DNA of 63,643 nucleotides, counting the filler, from Rhabdomonas costata (taxonomy: Eukaryota), in the NCBI GenBank assembly GCA_019059605.1. It is 51 parts of 51 records of this genome, joined end to end, with 100 filler letters (N's around TTAATTAATTAA, not from the genome) between each part and the next. Parts side by side here need not be neighbours in the genome. Positions count along the whole stretch, not along the records: positions 21,249 to 22,399 come from JAHMHO010026163.1; 50 more parts are not named here. One strand, 5' to 3'. Positions 7,402 to 59,995 of this stretch are shown piece by piece. Position numbers and translations under genes: made by a program. How positions within the stretch are numbered: position 1 is the stretch's first letter; every line of letters starts with the position of its first letter. Below the pieces are notes generated by a model. That model worked only from the letters and a program-made list of their open reading frames with translations, was not told the DNA's origin and searched no databases.

Positions 7402-9032
7402 NNNNNNNNNNNNNNNNNNNNNNNNNNNNNNNNNNNNNNNNNNNNTTAATTAATTAANNNNNNNNNNNNNNNNNNNNNNNNNNNNNNNNNNNNNNNNNNN
7501 NTGTTGTGGACGCACCCGAATAGCTCGGGAATGATGACGATGTGTTTTAAACGGATGTTTCTGCAGAAGTCGTACTTCAAATGTTTGATTTCGAACATGA
7601 AGTGGTCTTTTGATGTGCATGCTTTCCATTGTTTCCCGCATTTCCTTTGCATTTTGCTAAATAGCATTGTCCAATTTTCCATGCATATGCCTTTTGTATT
7701 TGCGACGCAATTGATCCGCAATTGATCTTGTGTCTTTCTTCATTCCTTGGCTCAGACACCTCTGGACTGCATAACTTAAGTAGCTTTGTTCGTATTCGTC
7801 CTTCTGCATACTTCGCTTTGAAAATCCGCGAGAATTTAGTTGCTTTCAAATTCCCCCAAATAAAACCCTCGGCAGGGATTTCCCCTTCTTCTGGGTGGCA
7901 GGAAAGCAGAGGCAAGAGATTGAAAAAGCTGACCGCCGGAAGGACAAGAAGCGGCAGGAAGAGAACCAGCGAAAGAGCTTGCAGGTGATTTGCTTCTTGA
8001 TTTTCACGTATCGTTATGTGTTCGGCTTTCAGCGGGCAATCGGAAGTGAAAGTATGTTGAACATATGTTTTCTTGCAAGACCTGTTCCGATTTCATAGCT
8101 TAGTGTCGTCATTATGTCGAACCGATCAGTTCATCAGTTGGCAGGCAGAGCTAATGCTAGTTGCGACTGAGTAATCCGTGTGAACGGTGGGTGTGCTTAC
8201 TGTCTTTTGCTGACTGGGCTGCTGTTGCTCCTGTTGCAAGGTCAAAGTGAGCAAATAATACAGAGTAAATCGAGTGGATATAGACTGGATCCTGCCTTCC
8301 CGCTCTGAGGAGCAATTTTATTCGATCTGGAGATCCTTCTTATCTCATTATTTGACACCAAGGGAAACCCTTTTCCTTGCTCTATAGGTTGCAGTCGTTT
8401 TTTTTTGGATGGGCTCATTCTCGTATTTTACACGCTCTGGAAGAACTCGCTGTATAGTGCCCTGTTGTTGTCGACCGTCTTCTGTTACTCGTGTCTTGTG
8501 AATGCCATCAGCAGTTTGAACGACTGATGCACACTTCTTCGTGTGCATGAATACCGGTACGGGTCATGAACACGAAGAAGTGTGCATCAGTCGTTCAAAC
8601 TGCTGATGGCATTCACAAGACACGAGTAACAGAAGACGGTCAACAACAACANNNNNNNNNNNNNNNNNNNNNNNNNNNNNNNNNNNNNNNNNNNNTTAAT
8701 TAATTAANNNNNNNNNNNNNNNNNNNNNNNNNNNNNNNNNNNNNNNNNNNNGGGTGTGTGGTAATGCGGGGAAGCAGGAAAACATTGAAAATAATAGAAA
8801 TTTATTAAGTGGTGGTTATGCGGCTGGCTGGCTGGTTGGTTCTTTTACTTGGTATTACTGCTTCTTGCATGGAGAGGTTGGAAAGGTTTCACTTAGAGTA
8901 CTTGAAATAACTTGCAAATGTGAATTGCATTTCAACGGTTCCAAAGATAAAAAATAAAAATGCGCGAAAAAGCGAATTGCTGCAAGACATCGCTGCAGCT
9001 ATTGCCAGAGCTTTGTTTCTATTGGGAGGCAC

Positions 9033-18364: not shown

Positions 18365-21300
18365 CTGTTAACAGAAAGGTCATTTAAAAACACCTGGGAA
18401 CGTTTCACCCCTTGTCACGTTGTCACGAAAAGGAGCAGCATCGTTGACGAGAAAGCGGAAGAGGACAGCAACAACGTGGCCAGTTGGAGTAACCAGCTAA
18501 TTTCAAGATTCCGAATATTCTGAATATTCCGAATATCAATAGTGGTGAACCCGCTGTTGTTATTTCAAGATCTTTTTGCTTCTACGTCGCCAGAACTTCT
18601 CTTACCCTCCCGAAAACGAGGCTTTCCCTGAATTAATTTTTGTGCCGGNNNNNNNNNNNNNNNNNNNNNNNNNNNNNNNNNNNNNNNNNNNNTTAATTAA
18701 TTAANNNNNNNNNNNNNNNNNNNNNNNNNNNNNNNNNNNNNNNNNNNNTGTTGGAAAAATTTCAAAATCCCCCCGGCGAGAAAGATCTTCACAATGCCAA
18801 TGTCTCCTGAAAGTACTGCACGTGGGATTCCCCGGGGGCCTTCGAGAACCTAGCCAATAGCAGGAGACTTCGATTCGGTCATATGGAGGTCACTCGGCGC
18901 ACCAAAGACCTGTACAGTGGGGCTCCTACCTTCAGGTACACGGTAGTAGAGGTTGTCGTGAGCTTTCTTCCAGATTGTGGCATCATCAGACCACAGGGGA
19001 AATGCCTCTGTTATGGGATATGGGATCTCTGCTGAATAGTTGAATAGGGGATGTCACACAGGGACCTTTTTATTAGGGACATTCTTGGCTTTCGGTGGGA
19101 CATTATATAGGCTTTTGCTGCATAACAGCAAGTCCATGTAAAAAAAGACCCTTTGATCTAAAAAAAAAACGCCGTGGAACAGGTGATTGATTGTATTTCT
19201 GGAGTATAGGGGACACTTTCACATGGCGCGGGTCGAGAGCAAAGGGAGACAGAGAGAGGGCATGCCCGAGGAGCGGAGATGAAGGTTCCCATGCCACTGG
19301 AGGGCCGGAAGTTGGCGCCGGCAAAGTTGCCCGCTGCGTCATTTGGGGCGCTCTTGCGGCTGCCCGAGCGCAGTGTGCGTATGCAAAAAAAACGCCGCAG
19401 GCGAAGAGACAAAGAAACGGAAATTCGGAGTGCGAAGTGCGACGATGGCACGCGATAAACACTTGGCCTTTGGCAACAATTGCAGTTACAATCACATTAC
19501 CTTCCCAGTCCGTAAAGGGGGGCCTGGAGAACAACCTTATGCGGAATTTTCGGTCCTGTCACGTTATCAAAAGCTGATGTAAAGAAAATATCCCATTGTT
19601 TCGCAAGCGTCACGTGCTATATCTAGCGCAGAATCTACAAGAATAGAGCTCAACAGAAAACTGAATACGGATTTCCTTATTTATTTTATTGAAGGAAAAT
19701 TTCAAATTTGACAAGTGAACGGCACTTCCAGAAATAATTTCCAGAAGAATTTTCAACTGAGAGGGCAAGAATGCGGAAAAACCCATATCGTTATTTTGCT
19801 GATTTTCGTGAGTTGCAGATTCCAGATTGTAGATTTCGGTCACACCCCCCCCCACCTGCATTAAAGACCACATTTACAAACAGACACACCTGGGGACGNN
19901 NNNNNNNNNNNNNNNNNNNNNNNNNNNNNNNNNNNNNNNNNNTTAATTAATTAANNNNNNNNNNNNNNNNNNNNNNNNNNNNNNNNNNNNNNNNNNNNTG
20001 TTGGTTTTAGCAAGGGACCTTGCATTGCTGTGAAGTTTGAACCGTGGAAAGGGGCTCTGCAGAAGCAGTGGTCTTCGGCTGAGCGACAATGGCCGCCTCT
20101 GCTAAGGGAAGTTTACGTTTATCTTGTGGAAGTGAGAAGCGCAGGGCAACCTTTTTTCCGCGGATCAGAGGTCATAGTTATGGCCCTGCCTGTGCAGCAT
20201 AGTTCGCCGATTCCATTGTTGTAGACCCAGAGACTTTTGAATTCGTTCTGCAGACGCAATCACATCCACTCTGCAACAGCCTTCTGTCCTAACTAGCGCC
20301 AGCCAAGGATCCCCTTGCGAAGGATGCATGGGTGCATCGAAAGCGGCGTTTATTCATCCATTCTGTGCTGGGATGTAGTGGTGTGAAATGCAACTGTCTA
20401 TGAAGGGAATCCCCCGATCCCTGCGCTGCCAACTGTCATTGTGGGTGTTTTGCAGATGCCCTTCGACTTCCTCTCCCATCTTCCGCACCACGGCCCCACC
20501 ACCACCATCACCACGAACGGCGAGTCTTGTACATAGTAGTTTGCGTTTGTTTCTCGTTGGCTCTGCCTTACTTTCTCTCATTCTCTCCATTCGGTTTCAC
20601 ATGCCCCTCTAATTCTCACAAAACCCCGTGTACAAAGCTGTGGTACCATGACTTCATGTAAATGTGTTTAAACCATTTCCTGTGGTGAATGTGCCGTTTG
20701 CTGTTTCGTGGCCTTCCTTTGGATTTTCAGCTGTTGAGCTTGGGAAGGCCGAATGTGACTCGCCGACGCTTTCAGCATATCCTGAACAAGAAAAGAAACG
20801 CGATGCTTCCTGAGGACAGGGCGTATGCGTAGAGGCGGCGTGTGTTGTGAATTGGACCGAATGAAACGTTTTGTTGACCTAAGAGCTCCACTTGTGCTGA
20901 AAACTGCCCTACACAGAATCCCCTGCTCTTTTCCTTCTTTGGCATCTGCTGTCTGCTATCCTGTCTTCTCTGCAGCCAAAGTCTATCTTCATTCCGCCGC
21001 TGCTTTGCTGAGCTTCTTTTCCTTCGGATCCGGAACCTTGTCTACACTTCCAAGCCAGCTTTTTCTTCTCACTCACTTGTACACCGTTCTTACCACCCCT
21101 GCGCCGGACTTTCGTACACCTTCGCTTTGTGTCCTGACGCTCTCTCCCNNNNNNNNNNNNNNNNNNNNNNNNNNNNNNNNNNNNNNNNNNNNTTAATTAA
21201 TTAANNNNNNNNNNNNNNNNNNNNNNNNNNNNNNNNNNNNNNNNNNNNGGTTTGTGTGTCTGTCGCTATGCCTTCTGTGTGTACGCCTTCTGTGTCGATG

Positions 21301-22012
21301 TCTGTACCTTCTGTGTCTACGTCTCAGCCTTCCTGTTTTACGGTGCCTGTTGCTACGCCTTCTGTGTCTGTTGCTATGCCTTCTGTTACCTGTGCTTGTC
21401 CTGTGCTTGTTGTTGCTGATGGTGGTGGGAGGGGTGCGTGGATTTCTGACGACGTGTGGATTTCTGGGGCCAGGGTGTCAGGTTGTGTGGATGTTGGTGT
21501 TACCAGTGCTGTGTCAATGCTTTGTGTGTCAGAGGCTTCGTGTTCTTGCGTCCTTGGGGTCACGGTTTCTGGATTTCAGGGGTCACGTGTTTCGGAGTCG
21601 GAGGGAGTGTGTGAGTTCTGCGATGCCAAGCTGAGTACTACGCTGTGTCTTGATGGATGTGTGCTTGGGGCTACGGGTTCATGGGTTCGTGTTTTCGAGG
21701 GTCAGGGTTTCGAAGGTCACGTGTTGGAAGGTGCGGGGTTGATGGTTGCTGCGAGTGAGTTGGTGTTGCTAGGCTGTCATGTCTCAGGGTGTCAGGAGGA
21801 GTGTGTGGAGTTGGAGGGTCAGGGTCACGTTTTTGGGTGTGAGGGTCAGGAGGGTGTGAGTGCTGTGAGTGGTTCGATGCATGACTGTACTACGCTTCTC
21901 TTCAACATCTAGGAGGGATGACGAGCGTAGCGAGGCATCCCGACATCTATGCCTTTACTCTTCTCCTCTGTCGGGTCTCTCAGGACTTCGAGCCCATCCC
22001 CTACCATCTTAG

Positions 22013-22087
22013 CTATACGTGTCACTCCGTTACACTCCCCGCCATAAGGCGGTCACTCCGACCGGGCGTAGCCACACAGGAAGATAC
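22013..22087 (+). repeat. Conserved non-coding core shared with 35786-35867
   Basis: Collinear blocks CTATAC.TGTCACTCC, CACTCC, CCGCCATAAGGCG, TCCG.CCGGGCGTAGCCACA and GAAGATAC in both contigs. Confidence 0.85.
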
Positions 22088-22499
22088 CCCTTGGGTTCAC
22101 GAGCGTAGCGAGTAGGAGGGTAAGGTGAGTGCATGGAGGCGGCCTATGCCGGTGGAATGCACGAACTACCACATGTAGGAGGAGATGACGACCGGAGGGA
22201 GGCAGCGACGACCACCATCACCTTTTAGCCTTTTACACCCCCTAGGCCATCTTTTACACCTCCTAAGGCATCATCTTTACACCCCTTAGCTCCTAGAACC
22301 CCCCCTCAGCATCCCCCTCAGGGGGGTAGGGTACTAGGGGGTATGGAGGTCCCCTTAGCCCACCTGAGGTCCACCCCCCATCCCATCTCTCCTGCATACN
22401 NNNNNNNNNNNNNNNNNNNNNNNNNNNNNNNNNNNNNNNNNNNTTAATTAATTAANNNNNNNNNNNNNNNNNNNNNNNNNNNNNNNNNNNNNNNNNNNN

Positions 22500-23652
22500 C
22501 CACGCAGGAAACAAAAGTGCACTTTTGCATCCAAAAACAACACCCCATACCTAAGTAGAGTGTTTTCTTTGGGGTCTAGAGCGTACATTTTGAAGTGTGC
22601 TATGGATGTGGTCTTTTCGATATGCACAAGACTCTTCTGGGTGCTCATTCTCACTACGCTCCCGCAAGCCGTCACCCAGACAACGTTTTCCAAAATACTT
22701 TGAACAACCAAGGTTTTGGCCCCCCTTCCCCCCTTATCAATGTTGGGTAAGACCGTTTTGCTAACCAACATTGAAAAATGAGGGGGGGAGGGGGGGTTGT
22801 TCAATTCCATTATGGAAAACGTTGTCTGAAAATGACTTTTTCGCAACGGCGGATTCCCAGCACCTAAACCTCCCGATTTTACCGCCCCCCACAGGGTGGT
22901 GACACAGAAGCCCACGGCGTCGCTCCGCTCCGTGCTAAACTATGGCGAAAGCACACAAGTAAGGTTGAAAAGAGAGACAGGCATGGACTTAAGTGGCCAT
23001 TTTGCGCCAATCAACACTGAAAGAAGTAAAAATCGGCATTTGGGGGGTTTATCAGAGACAAAATATCCTAAAATAGCCTAAAATGGCCTAAAATAGCCTG
23101 AAAGAGCCTGAAATAAGACCTAAAGACGAGAAACGAGAGTAAAGCGAACATTAAAATGACATAAACGGAAACAACCAGCCCTAATTATTCACTGTATTGC
23201 GTTTTCTTCCTACCAATAACCGATTGGTCACGATGCCCAAACGATGCCCAAGACAATTTCCTCGATACCCAGCACGATGCCCGTTATTTTTGACGATGCC
23301 CAGTATTGTGTAAAGGGTTATAAATAATTAGACCTTTATAATAATGCTGGGCATCGTCAAAATAACGGGCAACGTGGTGGGCATCGTACAAAATGCGTTG
23401 GGCATCGTGCAAAATGAGCTCGGTACCGTGCAAAAACACGCCTAGAATGCCTCACCCATCACACAAACCTGAAAAACCCAACATTAATGCCGCTAAAAGG
23501 CTTTCGACACGTTAAAACTTGCCCTGTAATCTACAATACAGCATAGTTGTGTTGAAAAGCGCGCAGAAAGCCTCAAAACACACCACGCAGGAAACAAAAG
23601 TGCACTTTTGCATCCAAAAACAACACCCCATACCTAAGTAGAGTGTTTTCTT
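22500..23652. other. Circular or tandem 1083-bp non-coding unit with two long hairpins, an iteron array and phased A-tracts
   Basis: 22500-22569 is identical to 23583-23652 (70-bp terminal overlap); hairpins at 22677-22828 and ~23231-23410; 10-bp repeats at 23061-23125. Confidence 0.85.
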
Positions 23653-32245: not shown

Positions 32246-35200
32246 AGTGCCGTTTAGCCTTCCAATTGGCAGAATTAGAGTCCACCGGACCCCTCACCAT
32301 TCAAGATTATGAAATGATAATTATGTTCCTATCCGTGTATTTATCACAGGATCCCAACGCGTTGTTCACGTTCATTCAGCCCCCGATGTGCAAAAACAAC
32401 AANNNNNNNNNNNNNNNNNNNNNNNNNNNNNNNNNNNNNNNNNNNNTTAATTAATTAANNNNNNNNNNNNNNNNNNNNNNNNNNNNNNNNNNNNNNNNNN
32501 NNGGGTTGTGGGCAAGGGTGAAGACGTGCCGCAGGGAAAGCAGCACTGCCAAGGGTGTGGGGGAGAGTGGGGTGTCCACCCACCGCTGCAGCGCCAAGGA
32601 AACCGTCCGGAGCTGAGCCCCAGTGAGCAGCTGCGGCTGCTCAGCCAGAACCTCCTCGATCTCCATTCGGGTTGGCGTGGAAACCCGTCAGCAAAGAAGA
32701 ATATTGGGGGCGCCCTCAGCTCCAGAATAATGTAAATGAAGGTATTTTACATCTAAGAACAATAGAAACCTGCAGAATGTTTGTAGGGCAGTGTGGAAGA
32801 GCGCGGATTCAACAAGAAATCACCAACACAAGGCCGTGGCTAATATTGGCCCTCCAATCCATTTTTCCAGGAAGTAGGATGCTCTACCGTTGATGACCTG
32901 GAAAAAGGAGTCAAAGAAAAGAGCCAAAGTCGAGAAAAATCCCACAAAAATCCGAAAGCACTAAAACAGCTTGAATTTAGTTATGTGGGACCGATCCGTC
33001 ATATTCCTTCGGGCCTTGGGTGTCGCTCGGTGCCGCAACGGCACCAGAGCCCCCACGGCTGCCCAGGGGGGTCACCTCCCCCCGGTAGAGGATACCAACA
33101 ACCCAAAATTGGTCAGGGTTCGAATGCAACTGTCGAGGCGTATAGCAAACTTTAACGTCGGATTTTTTTTTGCAGAGAATCCATTTAATCGAAGATATGC
33201 TTAAAAACCCTTTCACGGACCCTCCCCACTCCACTGCACCCCTCAACAGCGCACCGCGTCCCTCGCCCAGAGCCGCGGAGGCCTGGCCCCTCAATTAAAC
33301 TCTTGGTCTCCTGGACTGCATTTTCCCGTCTTTAAATCTTCGTGCACGAACCCAGACCGTCCAGCTCGTTTCCCTCGGTGGCAATTGTTGTCGACCCCCC
33401 CCCCGATGCTGTCCGACAGCAAACACTGCCGGGCTCTAAAACTATTTTTTGAACCACCCTCCCACTCCTCTGCTACCCTTTCCCCAATTCTTTCGCTCTC
33501 TCTCTCTCTCTCTCTGCTTCTCTGCTTCTCTGTTTCGTGGACTATTGGACAATGAACACCTGTGGAGAGCATTTGCTATCGAATTTTCATTCACGGATGT
33601 CACTCGGTAGCAAATGCTCTCCACAGGTGTTCATTGTCCAATAGTCCACAAANNNNNNNNNNNNNNNNNNNNNNNNNNNNNNNNNNNNNNNNNNNNTTAA
33701 TTAATTAANNNNNNNNNNNNNNNNNNNNNNNNNNNNNNNNNNNNNNNNNNNNTTTGTGTTGGTTTTTCCGAATGCTTTACGGTTAACAAAAAATTACTCT
33801 TGCACCACATGCCAGCCTTTGTGTAAAATACAATACAATTCCACATGGCTGCAAAATTCAGGCGCCTTTGGCGAGGGATACCAAGTGGCAGAAGACCTCT
33901 TTTTCATATGTGTGCGAAAGAAAAAAGGCAGGGAGCATCGAGACCATATAATCAGAGTGCTGAAGACGATGGTGCTTATATCGGGTCTGGGGACTCGGAT
34001 GCATTCAGTTGCTCCTCCCGGCGTGACTGCTGGTGAAATCTTAATTTAGATTTCGGTAAATCCGAACACGTGCCCGTGCGAGTGGCAAAACCAAAACTCA
34101 GTTTAGGGTCAACGCATGGGGGGGGGGACATGCACACTTCCACACGACAATGTCCTCGGCAAGAGTGGTGGACAGGCGCTTCACCGCATTTGCGGTAGAC
34201 GGAGTCGTGGCGGCGGAGGACTGCGAATTGATTGCAACCACATGCAATGAAGCTACCGCTCTTCTCTCCACTCCGGTTCCGCTCCCAACTCGCTCCCAAT
34301 CTTGAAGGTGCGTCGGGCAGTGTCACGCACAGACTTTCAGCAAATATGAGTTGAAGCACAATACGCGGAGTGATAAATCTTAAGGTTGTTTACTTGCCCT
34401 TCTTTTTTCCTGTTCCTTTTTCGCTTTGGCTAATTTCCAATGTCAACATCAACCCCAACCCCATAACTGAACGCAAATCACTCCACTCGAGCCCGATTTT
34501 ATCATCGATCTGAACACCTAACGCTGCACATCCTCGAAATAATTGTAAATGAGTGCAAATGTGAGCTTCAAGATACAAAGACTCAGTACTTCAGCAGAGA
34601 GCCAATTTTACCACTAAAATATCAAACAATCCAATAGTTCAAACACTCCCCTGCGGTCAATTCAAATACCAACGCCAGTACTCTCATCCTTAACCAAAAC
34701 TTTTACTATTCCTACCCAGGCTTAACTTCAGCTTCGCTTTGGCATCACATCAGCTTTGCATCAGGCTTCACATGATGCGCTGATCACTTTCCCCATCCAA
34801 AGTTCACATCGAGTCAACATGCCCGAACTTCCATGGTGTTTGTCAGTCGGCCTTCCTATGGCCCATGCGGACAAAATGTCTAAACTTAGTATAAAAAAAC
34901 ACNNNNNNNNNNNNNNNNNNNNNNNNNNNNNNNNNNNNNNNNNNNNTTAATTAATTAANNNNNNNNNNNNNNNNNNNNNNNNNNNNNNNNNNNNNNNNNN
35001 NNTGTTGGGGTGGGGGATCGGCATAGGTTGCTCAACTTCACACACTGAGGTGATATCGCGTGTAGAAGGTGGGTTAGTCTGTGCGTAGGGTATGTCATGC
35101 TGTTATCATCCGGTGGTGGTCATTGGCAGCGTTCCTCCTTCGCTGGTGGTTATGCATCGAGTGCTAGGCATTGGCTGTCTATCCATCTGTGTGTGATCCT

Positions 35201-35785
35201 ACCGTTGGATTGACGTTGGTGGTGATCATCAGGTGGTCGTGGCGATGTTGGCAACCCAGCGAGGGCCCAACATCCTACACTGTACAAAGGTAGAGGTGTC
35301 ACAACCCTGTAAACCCTTCGTCTGTGTCGTGGTGGTGGTAGTAGTAGTAGCATGGTGTCACATCGTCGCTTCTCACCTTGGTGGTGTTATGGCATCCTCT
35401 CTCCTTGGCATCGGTTGTCCCCTACCGTGTGAGTCCAGTGACTGGGAATGCCGACAGAAGAAAGCACCTGTTAAGTGGAGGAACATGAACAACCGTAGGG
35501 AGTGACTGTGACGACCAAGAGAAGGAACATGAACAGGAGGTGGAGCGCAGCGACACCAAGTGTGAATGTGACCGAGTGAGTGGAAGCGCGCAGCGGTGGA
35601 GTGACGAACAACAGCATTACGAACGAAGTGAGTGGAGCGTAGCGCAACGAACGTAGTGAGAGCGTCGCCGGAGGCGGTCTTCTCTTGGGGCCCCATGACA
35701 TCGGTGTAAGGAGATGACATGGGGTATCAGTATCATCATACACTCACATGTCAGGATGCTCACGTCCTATCTTCATCATCATCAT

Positions 35786-35867
35786 CTATACCTGTCACTC
35801 CTCTCACTCCACCGCCATAAGGCGCCTACGTGAGATCCGTCCGGGCGTAGCCACAGGAAGAAGATAC
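35786..35867 (+). repeat. Second copy of the conserved non-coding core (see 22013-22087)
   Basis: Collinear conserved blocks; weaker similarity continues about 100 bp downstream. Confidence 0.85.
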
Positions 35868-36442
35868 AGTGAGGGTTTCATCTTCAGAGGGCATCACGAA
35901 GGCATGGTCGTAAGGGCATGCCGTAGTAGTATCACATGAAGGGCATGACAGATAGAGGTGAAGAAACCTGGTAGGAGTGGTTGACACACGATACACTAAG
36001 TCAGCACTTGACATCCTGACACCATCCTACACTTCCTACGCACTAGAAACAGAGAGCTAGGTAGATGGAACACAGACAGAAGGAACAGACACAGAAGCGT
36101 GAACCCAGCACTTGAGACACAAACCACCACAGAAGCACTCCACAAAACCCACNNNNNNNNNNNNNNNNNNNNNNNNNNNNNNNNNNNNNNNNNNNNTTAA
36201 TTAATTAANNNNNNNNNNNNNNNNNNNNNNNNNNNNNNNNNNNNNNNNNNNNGGTTTTTGTGGAATCGGGGTGGGGTGGGGTTGAGACCATCCCCCTTTC
36301 GCGGAAACATCAGAATGCATCCACTTCAGAAGCAGAAGGTTATCTATGAGTCGGGGATACCAAGGGGCGGGGAAAAGGTGCGGGCACCCCGGGCAAACCT
36401 AGCCAAACGGAATCTGCCCCCTTTGGGTGCGCGTTCACGCAC

Positions 36443-57494: not shown

Positions 57495-58644
57495 TATTTA
57501 GATGTGTAGCTCTTGTAATTGCTGTATAAATCCATCGTCTATCTGTATATGCAATATTCGCATCAAAAATTGTATATGGTTTAGTAATCGTTAATCCTTG
57601 TGTTGAATGACACGTGAAACAGTGCGGCAAACTTATATATTTCAATTGATTATAAGTGATATACATTTCTTTATTTTCATACACACTTTTAATTTTGAAC
57701 AGATATTTATTATCTGAATAATGTTCTAAAATCTGATACAGATAATTTGTATATAATTGTGCTTTTTTTCTTTTTAGGGGTTGTCTACAAATAATGTACT
57801 GTCCAACATGATATTTAAAATCATATGTTTTGTTATTGTGCTCGTGTTTAAATTCAATGTATTCATCTGGTACAACTACTAAATTATCTTGAACATGTTT
57901 ATTTATTTTGTATGCTCTTGATCTAAAATAGGATATATTGTCATGAGTAATTAGCTTAGAGATATTACTAATAATTTTAAAATCATACTTTTTGAAAATA
58001 TCAATAATATTTAGTGTATTATCGAAAATATCTTTCTTAAGATTCTTGAGTTTTTCTCTATCTTCTGGATCTTTCAAACGTTTATTCATTCGTAACATGA
58101 TATGAGCATCAAACATACTCATAATGCAATCAACAAGATACTTATTTTTCGATCTAATGTTATTAAAATCAAAATTCAACGGTAAATTTTGCGCATCATC
58201 ACCATTAGCAATGATTTTTTTATCTGGGTGTGCCTTGATAAAGCGTTGAATACTTGAAAGTAATTGAGGATCATATAATAAAATTTCTTCAAAGACAACA
58301 CAAACAAAATTAGATACATCAAACACTTTACGTTTTGAATTTTTACCATTAATATTAAGTGACATTAGATTATGTAATGTGATAGCCATATGACCTTTAA
58401 TAATTAATTCTTGACATAGTTGATTATAAGGTGTAACATACAATATATTTTCCCCAGCTAGTGATGAAGCATAACTTTTTCCTCCTCCTGCATATTCACT
58501 CCATATCATAATTAGTTGATGTTTATTTAAAATATCTTTTATTTCAATATTATATGCTTCTGGATCTTCAAAGAAATGTTCTTCAGATTTAAGATAATAT
58601 GTACTTACAACTCTAGAATTATATTTAACGTCATCTACATATTG
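57495..58644 (-). CDS. Superfamily 1 (RecD/PIF1-like) helicase, intronless and AT-rich, likely from a Polinton-like or other DNA virus; partial at both ends
   Basis: The whole contig is one open frame: Walker A AGGGKS, Walker B variant VVFEEI, motif III GDDAQN, motif V TCHSTQGLTI, motif VI YTAITRA. GC is far below that of the host contigs. Confidence 0.9.
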
Positions 58645-59995
58645 NNNNNNNNNNNNNNNNNNNNNNNNNNNNNNNNNNNNNNNNNNNNTTAATTAATTAA
58701 NNNNNNNNNNNNNNNNNNNNNNNNNNNNNNNNNNNNNNNNNNNNGGTTGGTGGTAAGAGCGAGGTTGCAAGCGACACCTCCGCTCAGGACGATGAGGCCG
58801 TGAATGCGGTGGACATCCCTCTAAATGTAGAATGAGATAGAGGCCCAGTGACTGGGATCCCGCGTGTATTGTAGAGTCAGTCCTCCGAAATGTTTTTGCT
58901 GCACTCCCCTCCCTTACACACTGGGTCGCTTTTGGCAGCCTCACTCTTACCACTCTTTGCCCTCCAGGAGTGTGCTTCCCCGCAGTTCTCTGTGAATGAG
59001 CTCTGGCTTTCCCTTTTTTATCCCTTTCTTGTTCCTTGTGTGTTGTTTGCTGTTTGCTATTCGCCGTGTGCACGTGGGTCTTTCACTGAACATTGGTGAC
59101 GCTGTGAATTGGTTTTGTTTTCAAAAAACCTAACAATAATATCCTAATAATCCTCAATGGTTATCTGTCATAGTTGCACTAGTTTTTCTCAGAAGCACCA
59201 CTTTCGGATGGAGAATTCCTAATTCTCGGGAATTTGCTGTGCGTGGGGGTGGGCATCGAATTTTGCTCCCCGTGACCTGCGACCGCGAATAGTTTTCATT
59301 AGGGGGGGGTTTCTTCAGTGCAACAGAGCGTACTGCCCATCACCCAAAAAGTATGAAGTTCGACTAGAAGAAAAAAGTTGAAAATTAAGCACAACAGAGA
59401 TGCGGTACATGCCTAATTAAACCCATATCATTGTTGTCATGTCCCAAGTGCTCGAGTTGGTAATCGACTTTAACTGTAAAGGGGGCCTTTCTCACCTCAC
59501 AGAGACTCGCTCGCAGCCAAAAGTCGCCCCCCGATGCGCAGAACGAGGTATGGAGCGCCCTCATCTTCCCTCTCCGCTCCATGGAAGCTCTCTCGCTAAT
59601 TGATCGAAGAACCGATCTTTGAGGGTAAATCCAACAGCCCGCTGCTCTCACAAAGCGCTAAAGACTCTTTTGGAGTCGTCCCCGATTTACTTTCCTTTGA
59701 TCCTTTTCAATGTGCTGATTTTGCCTTTCGTGATGCCTTCCTGTTCGGATTTGGTGCGTTGCACTTCCTTTTTCCTTTGCCTTACACACATGGCTCTTTT
59801 TAACCTAAATAGGACTTTTTGTGGTGCTGGCATTTGGTTAAAAAGAGCCATGTGTGTAAGGCAAAGGAAAAAGGAAGTGCAACGCACCAAACCNNNNNNN
59901 NNNNNNNNNNNNNNNNNNNNNNNNNNNNNNNNNNNNNTTAATTAATTAANNNNNNNNNNNNNNNNNNNNNNNNNNNNNNNNNNNNNNNNNNNNCC

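Follow-up and report, generated by a model that had tools for sequence, protein, structure and literature searches.

A strand-polarised hairpin array as the likely control region of a many-piece mitochondrial genome in the euglenid Rhabdomonas costata

Euglenid mitochondrial DNA (mtDNA) is known mainly from Euglena gracilis, where it has been described as simple (PMC4806707, PMC8130358). In the E. gracilis literature cited here, mitochondrial rRNA comes in four pieces (SSU-L/R and LSU-L/R) and no LSU gene is clearly identified (PMC4700960, PMC4806707, PMC8130358). For R. costata itself, mitochondrial gene contigs with unedited cox1, cox2, cob and nad4 have been published, together with a genetic code in which UAG stands for tyrosine and UGA for tryptophan (PMC8219788); the main-text account of that paper covers these four gene contigs only, and holds no non-coding architecture, rRNA or atp6. 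Among the diplonemids, as summarized in the reports cited, each mitochondrial chromosome carries one short cassette inside shared non-coding DNA, the cassettes undergo separate transcription from a promoter within the constant region, protein genes are broken up and trans-spliced on proven circles, and constant regions are highly alike within a class (>90% identical, >100 bp) (PMC7049700, PMC3936708). A comparable layout, with 1-2 genes per molecule beside a conserved constant region, is described for the minicircles of stylonematophycean red algae, which are proven circles in an unrelated lineage (PMC10250338).

This study examined a stretch of R. costata DNA of 63,643 nucleotides (the window), composed of contigs of ~1,150 bp joined by N44-TTAATTAATTAA-N44 filler, within an assembly of 97 Mb in 104,289 contigs that was searched as a whole. 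Two of the window's contigs, A (G000:C26163) and B (G000:C26174; 35003-36152), share a non-coding core that an earlier note, made from the sequence of the window, had proposed as the constant region of a multipartite replicon family (Table 1). The collinear blocks on which that proposal was built were recovered by self-BLAST between the two core modules (78% over 83 nt, E=7e-9), and the CTATAC.TGTCACTCC, CCGCCATAAGGCG and CCG[AT]CCGGGCGTAGCCACA blocks each have two copies in the window, one on each contig; the GAAGATAC block has 3 occurrences. Likewise present as the note had described are the two GAGCGTAGCGAG mini-hairpins flanking the core of contig A (at 21923 and 22101), the three ~22-bp repeats past it (TTTACACC at 22232, 22253 and 22276; TRF period 21, 2.8 copies) and the ACAGACACAGAAG-type repeat on both contigs (36085, and in reverse complement at 21359). 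The G/T tract of contig A is 86% alike over 287 nt to the tract of locus L287, which leads into a core. On other contigs the block called PRE, whose start closes contig A, leads through a G/T leader to a promoter-like motif and a cassette; contig A is odd in that its sense G/T tract is fused to the back of the array, differing from the usual order.

Table 1. Features of the two core-bearing contigs, in positions of the window
Feature	Position	Strand	Evidence
Contig A: G/T tract, short hairpin array with core module, start of PRE	21249..22399	+	
Contig A, G/T-rich tract of the type trailing mitochondrial protein genes; closes with a tail of the conserved BOX motif, 21879-21889	21249..21889	+	
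Contig A, array unit with GC-GTA-GC (GNA triloop) mini-hairpin at 21923-21934	21906..21947	+	
Contig A, core module: TGTC block, MTAA-loop hairpin (22039-22052), CCGACC, mini-hairpin, GAAGATAC	22013..22087	+	
GGC-GTA-GCC mini-hairpin inside contig A core	22065-22073	+	
Contig A, second GNA mini-hairpin and further array unit	22101..22182	+	
Contig A, three TTTACACC repeats, period 21	22230..22289	+	TRF
Contig A end, first 62 nt of PRE (upstream block)	22338..22399	+	
Contig B, spacer-type sequence	35065..35450	+	82% over 390 nt to L366
Contig B, hairpin array with core module (35786-35867) at its end	35479..35867	+	
Contig B, tract rich in C/A, corresponding to the G/T tract type in reverse complement	36071..36152	+	

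Genome-wide, many contigs of this fragmented euglenid assembly carry copies of a hairpin array, and the core is one of its modules. A BLAST search of the core against the whole assembly returned a large family (56 matches), the hairpin CCGCCATAAGGCG has 54 exact matches versus 3 for its reversed control, and GGGCGWAGCCA has 355 versus 79 for its control. In 47 of 67 non-redundant modules the CCGWCC block is preceded, at a fixed distance, by an NTAAG loop; among these 47, stem pairs 2-4 show Watson-Crick pairing in 45, 41 and 41 modules, respectively. Covariation bears the hairpin out, with 25 two-sided changes in the 49 of 67 modules that were aligned, a number reached in 0 of 500 shuffles, in a test that the relatedness of the modules inflates. 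Additionally, the GGC-GWA-GCC mini-hairpin is nearly invariant across core modules, and up to 350 nt upstream of the core the GNA-loop hairpins number 179 on the core strand versus 19 (overlapping loci counted). Whole-region folding of the array as DNA gave nothing better than shuffles (z -0.09 and +1.32), which indicates that selection acts on the small local hairpins. The shared region is otherwise loose: most pairs of members are 62-77% alike, only some subsets reach 94-98%, and the family block breaks off at distances ranging from 12 to 937 nt upstream of the core, with no common end (34 of 76 loci).

The mitochondrial genes found in the assembly comprise cox1 (62 matches), cob (43 matches), nad4, nad5, cox2 and atp6, alongside many decayed mitochondrial gene copies. 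TAG occupies tyrosine positions in cox1 and cob, and cob contains in-frame TGA; the code is that already published for R. costata (PMC8219788) and is therefore not new. Read from the DNA with TAG as tyrosine and TGA as tryptophan, cox1, cob, nad4, nad5 and cox2 are open frames without editing, cox1 over 241 codons (overlapping the next contig) and cox2 over 253 codons. Around protein genes the order is gene, shared 3' motif, G/T tract, BOX and a core facing the gene. The shared 3' motif, of 17 nt, has 71 matches versus 1 for the control and, according to the 15 of 30 loci that were translated, closes cox1, nad4, cox2, atp6 and three unnamed ORFs, all in the same frame. Pfam gave meaningful scores for just 2 of 8 ORFs ending in this motif, with cox2 at E=8e-21, and atp6 (L482:825-1334) matches subunit a of PDB 6tdu (E=3e-15). 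The three unnamed ORF types (L485, L498, L483, L492) gave no meaningful Pfam match, and the L498 ORF no PDB match; they are likely the ends of cox3, nad1, nad5 or cob. Seven gene types (L480, L481, L482, L483, L485, L492, L493) read in frame into the peptide SYPALHSQ, and most intact copies have no TAA within ~90 further codons; given the code, the stop may be made by cleavage and poly(A) addition, or by another mechanism.

The 3' motif and the core occur together on one contig at three loci, and in all three they are convergent, with the core on the opposite strand and 791-844 nt away. Locus L089 begins with the 3' end of cox1 (100% over 50 nt) and then leads to the core, and is the sole contig that joins a recognizable intact protein-gene end to it. 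The exception in orientation is L124, a decayed cob copy with the core on the same strand; over genes and cassettes together, the orientation of the core is fixed in 12 of 13 linked contigs. The examined contigs are short, and none carries two genes or a whole molecule.

A second class of contigs has the order array, PRE, G/T leader, CCYTCGGGATHTC motif, cassette, variable spacer and a core facing the cassette, the cassette lying within the first ~200 nt after the CCYTCGGGATHTC motif. The promoter-like motif, searched as TCCYTCGGGATHTC, has 218 matches versus 3 for the control. It follows PRE in the same orientation, via the G/T leader, in 13 of 13 loci with both, and in 11 of 11 records, corresponding to 9 of 9 contigs, a core lying 775-1,780 nt downstream is turned toward it; array units continue into PRE in 7 of the 21 loci inspected by eye. 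The cassette set, drawn from ~100 of the 218 motif sites plus related loci, holds 113 records in 36 clusters, 21 of them with at least two records. Cassettes stay conserved where the spacers diverge, and many cassettes have a 5' part taken from a different cassette type, from which we infer recombination between molecules and trimming of precursors. A six-frame, all-against-all protein comparison of the core family gave equal matches in every frame, so that the spacers hold no hidden conserved ORF. A gene unit is joined on either side to the same (inner) array end, and the arrays are therefore inverted about the gene; such a layout is compatible with linear molecules whose ends are inverted, or with circles in which arrays stand back to back, as seen in L042. 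The distal array ends, compared by eye, had no common terminal sequence.

The identity of the cassettes was approached by scoring them against a consensus of 45 bacterial LSU and 45 bacterial SSU genes (positions in consensus numbering). Four types matched domain V of the LSU: type 4 at 2024-2058 (z 1.9-4.8), type 2 at 2387-2437 (z 7-11), type 18 up to 2490 (z 3.2-4.9) and type 21 at 2499-2582 (z 12-14). These four are near-consecutive on the LSU and barely overlap, and on this likeness types 2, 4, 18 and 21 are putative near-consecutive pieces of the peptidyl-transferase centre. Type 10/29 had a weaker LSU match at 1638-1698 (z 1.1-3.9). Among the controls, the maximum over 39 spacer windows was z 2.3, and 1 of 62 antisense windows reached at least z 2.5, with one singleton antisense control an outlier at z 5.0. 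An rRNA assignment was thus reached for 4 of the 21 multi-record types, leaving 17. An Rfam search of 12 and 17 loci found no rRNA, and full-length bacterial LSU and SSU HMMs run on 193 loci gave a single match (E=0.067).

SSU assignments made by eye for L005, L006 and L063 failed a shuffle test and were dropped. A 3' flank common to type 17 (L387, L400, L424) and types 1, 11, 12 and 14 resembles the SSU 530 loop, with z up to 2.7 for type 17; type 17 may be a true 530-loop piece and the other four may hold borrowed copies. In type 21 (L519-L531) the A-loop and H93 piece is succeeded by a GA dinucleotide run of variable length, which may indicate where the piece has its 3' end.

The domain V pieces were also compared for adjacency and pairing. 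Across the assembly, none of the 12 copies of the type 18 piece has the type 2 helix strand before it or the A-loop after it, and none of the 13 copies of the A-loop piece comes after a type 18 piece, several of these 12 and 13 copies lying on short contigs; the promoter-like motif stands just upstream in 6 of the 12 and 8 of the 13. For the type 4 strand, the best partners among the 113 records were seven type 2 records (helix 74, -19.6 kcal/mol). The duplex of type 18 with type 21 has the bacterial helix-90 shape with the upper-stem sequence changed on both strands, and its energy of -13.6 compares with a range of -13.4 to -15.5 over the five bacterial pairs that occur most often; ranked by energy, the helix-90 partner fell outside the top 10. 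Types 2 and 4 did not stand out in whole-cassette, all-against-all duplex energies (rank 85 of 210), which were not discriminating. The predicted duplexes suggest that helices 74 and 90, named after 23S structure, can pair across molecules.

Placed in this setting, the core is probably a control-region module of a multipartite euglenid mtDNA whose rRNA is split across molecules. The strand-polarised hairpin array would be the likely control region, and each molecule would likely carry a single gene, either a whole protein gene or a short fragment of rRNA. The CCYTCGGGATHTC motif would act as a promoter or 5' processing signal, each cassette would be transcribed alone and its borrowed flanks trimmed off, and the rRNA pieces would join into a ribosome by trans pairing through helices 74 and 90, while recombination between arrays and flanks would shuffle modules among molecules. 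GNA triloop hairpins are especially stable in single-stranded DNA, and they lie here on one strand; for this reason the arrays may serve replication or priming as well as protein binding, a role whose chances we consider about evenly balanced, with a terminator role as its rival. The fullest form of the model has ~30 kinds of mini-chromosome, for about seven protein genes and ~20 rRNA fragments, each alone on its molecule behind a shared promoter and between inverted DNA-hairpin arrays, with the catalytic centre assembled in trans from four chromosomes; we would give this form an equal chance of holding or failing.

The host was recognized as a euglenid by its main SSU rRNA, which by eye is long, divergent and euglenid-like, and by cox1, whose best solved-structure match is PDB 8iuf, presumably a Euglena entry (300 bits versus 203 for the next). 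A contaminant origin of the core family was rejected because the linked cox1 belongs to the set with this best match. The constant-region reading of the earlier note accordingly survives in its mitochondrial part, the core standing in fixed orientation by a mitochondrial protein gene and by rRNA-like cassettes, and differs in the host, which is a euglenid and not a kinetoplastid or diplonemid. Contaminants visible by eye in the assembly include a plant-like SSU rRNA, a bacterial nuoL-like gene and an AT-rich, fungal-like nad2 (L109, L129, L130). L139 holds a nad5-like ORF that lacks TAG and has a nuclear-type composition; it may be a complex I or antiporter subunit encoded in the nucleus. Within the window, an AT-rich ORF of 383 aa (57496-58644, minus strand) has a weak match to a UvrD-like helicase C-terminus (E=8e-5, below the cut-off) and may come from a mobile element or virus, and 1760-2140 resembles by eye an exon of an SF3B1-like splicing factor, with no Pfam match.

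The assembly is full of chimeric or NUMT junctions, and many core contigs run into nuclear-looking sequence. Inverted repeats, often at contig ends, occur in many contigs (in the window at 8463-8651, 23241-23408, 33534-33652 and 59750-59891), and most window contigs start G/T-rich and finish C/A-rich, a pattern typical of amplification artefacts. The frequent junctions to nuclear-looking DNA and the inverted contig ends point to whole-genome amplification; single junctions are weak amid such chimeras, and the argument therefore rests on repeated arrangements. In contigs of the source sample (three runs, one sample), the core of contig A lies on one 318-nt unitig at depth 102, and its tract-to-array junction is spanned in one run at depth 168 and crossed by a depth-45 piece in another, while the link to PRE is a minority path (depth 13-18 versus 102). 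In the source run's contigs the core family reaches depths of hundreds to thousands; these are sums and give no copy number. A biofilm DNA run from another study contained two pieces of the core flanked by family-type sequence, plus 296 nt from the cassette/spacer region; since pieces recur in environmental DNA from another study, the core family is not an amplification artefact. A wastewater DNA run and a biofilm RNA run held only short family pieces, and the environmental DNA run with core pieces, X5, had no match to contig A at 92% likeness, which is not proof of absence.

Three other accounts of these data have to be weighed. The passage of many core contigs into nuclear-looking sequence would suit a core that is a nuclear dispersed repeat or a non-autonomous transposon, the latter an option in the earlier note, joined to mitochondrial sequence by amplification chimeras or nuclear insertions of mtDNA. 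This is highly improbable given the scattered breakpoints without a common end, the orientation to genes and cassettes that is constant in all linked contigs except one, and the high (summed) depth, and the transposon version has against it that none of the 3 ORFs of the two window contigs matched a reverse transcriptase or transposase in Pfam. Alternatively, the cassettes could be non-functional scraps in a recombining linear mtDNA pool like that of E. gracilis, the full-length rRNA genes being absent from the assembly. Borrowed 5' ends and the many decayed copies agree with such a pool, and E. gracilis mtDNA is described as having terminal repeats and many gene and rRNA fragments that are likely non-functional (PMC4700960). 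Scraps would nevertheless have to take up a fixed place behind one motif, to be near-consecutive and barely overlapping pieces conserved while their spacers diverge, and to keep trans pairing despite changed sequence; moreover, 0 of 25 copies of two pieces are contiguous with the neighbouring piece, several of the contigs being short. We consider the scraps account unlikely.

Somewhat better placed, yet still improbable, is the view that many of the remaining cassettes encode guide-like or other small RNAs on mitochondrial molecules and that the core is a terminator or antisense promoter and not an origin. The 17 of 21 cassette types with no rRNA assignment leave room for small RNAs, the core is in every case turned toward the gene's 3' end, and antisense transcription has been described in E. 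gracilis (PMC4700960). The open reading of cox1, cob, nad4, nad5 and cox2 without editing and the weaker LSU match of type 10/29 (z up to 3.9) argue against this view.

Read as control-region modules of a multipartite genome, the arrays and their genes can be compared with the described systems. The E. gracilis genome shares with the present one a euglenid host, multipartite organization, repeats, decayed copies and split rRNA; its protein genes are single, full-length and unedited, as those here may be from their open frames (PMC4700960, PMC4806707, PMC8130358). Instead of rRNA in four pieces, however, LSU domain V alone, with the peptidyl-transferase centre, is here spread over four molecule types, and a single promoter-like motif and a single array are common to ~20 cassette types in DNA of ~50% GC. 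E. gracilis mtDNA is linear with terminal repeats; here inverted arrays flank the unit, and the distal ends are, by eye, without a common terminus. The published R. costata contigs have the same genetic code, UAG being tyrosine and UGA tryptophan in both, and their cox1, cox2, cob and nad4 are unedited, as the open frames suggest for those here (PMC8219788). Unlike in diplonemids, the protein genes read as whole and the shared region is a shuffled mosaic, about 65-80% alike and known from short-read contigs; the rRNA is far more finely split than in Diplonema, where rnl consists of two modules (PMC7049700, PMC3936708). The system belongs with euglenid multipartite mtDNA and departs from its four-piece rRNA; it works like diplonemid chromosomes and falls outside that group by its whole protein genes and looser shared region.

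Kinetoplastid minicircles, which go with guide RNA genes and edited maxicircle genes, differ in their conserved blocks, and the genes here read open without editing. Exact motifs for CSB-1, CSB-2 and CSB-3/UMS had 0 matches in the 76 core-bearing loci, and with one mismatch the counts against the control were 7 versus 0 for UMS, 5 versus 8 for CSB-1 and 60 versus 75 for CSB-2; the resemblance of the core to CSB-1 and CSB-3, which the earlier note had itself called too short to count as evidence, is unsupported. A ribosome built from many short RNAs is also found in Chlamydomonas, Polytomella and Apicomplexa, none of them euglenozoan, and there the rRNA pieces are clustered on few molecules or modules and are not known to be placed one per chromosome behind a common motif. 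The short RNAs in those lineages are reported to number from 13 to more than 50 (PMC8660880, PMC9576764, PMC11652630, PMC11742926). Within the full-text literature searched, in which subscription journals are thinly covered and supplements excluded, no description of such an architecture in a euglenid was found.

The scrambling of kinetoplastid and diplonemid genomes is judged against euglenid mtDNA (PMC4806707, PMC8130358). If the present reading is true, cassette architecture is not confined to diplonemids, and a diplonemid-like, one-cassette architecture would have been reached separately in euglenids and applied to rRNA only. The cassettes would supply recognizable euglenid mitochondrial LSU sequence, which the E. 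gracilis account reports as undetected (PMC4700960). Additionally, they give probes for the replication of an organelle genome of many chromosomes and for a ribosome made from separately inherited pieces.
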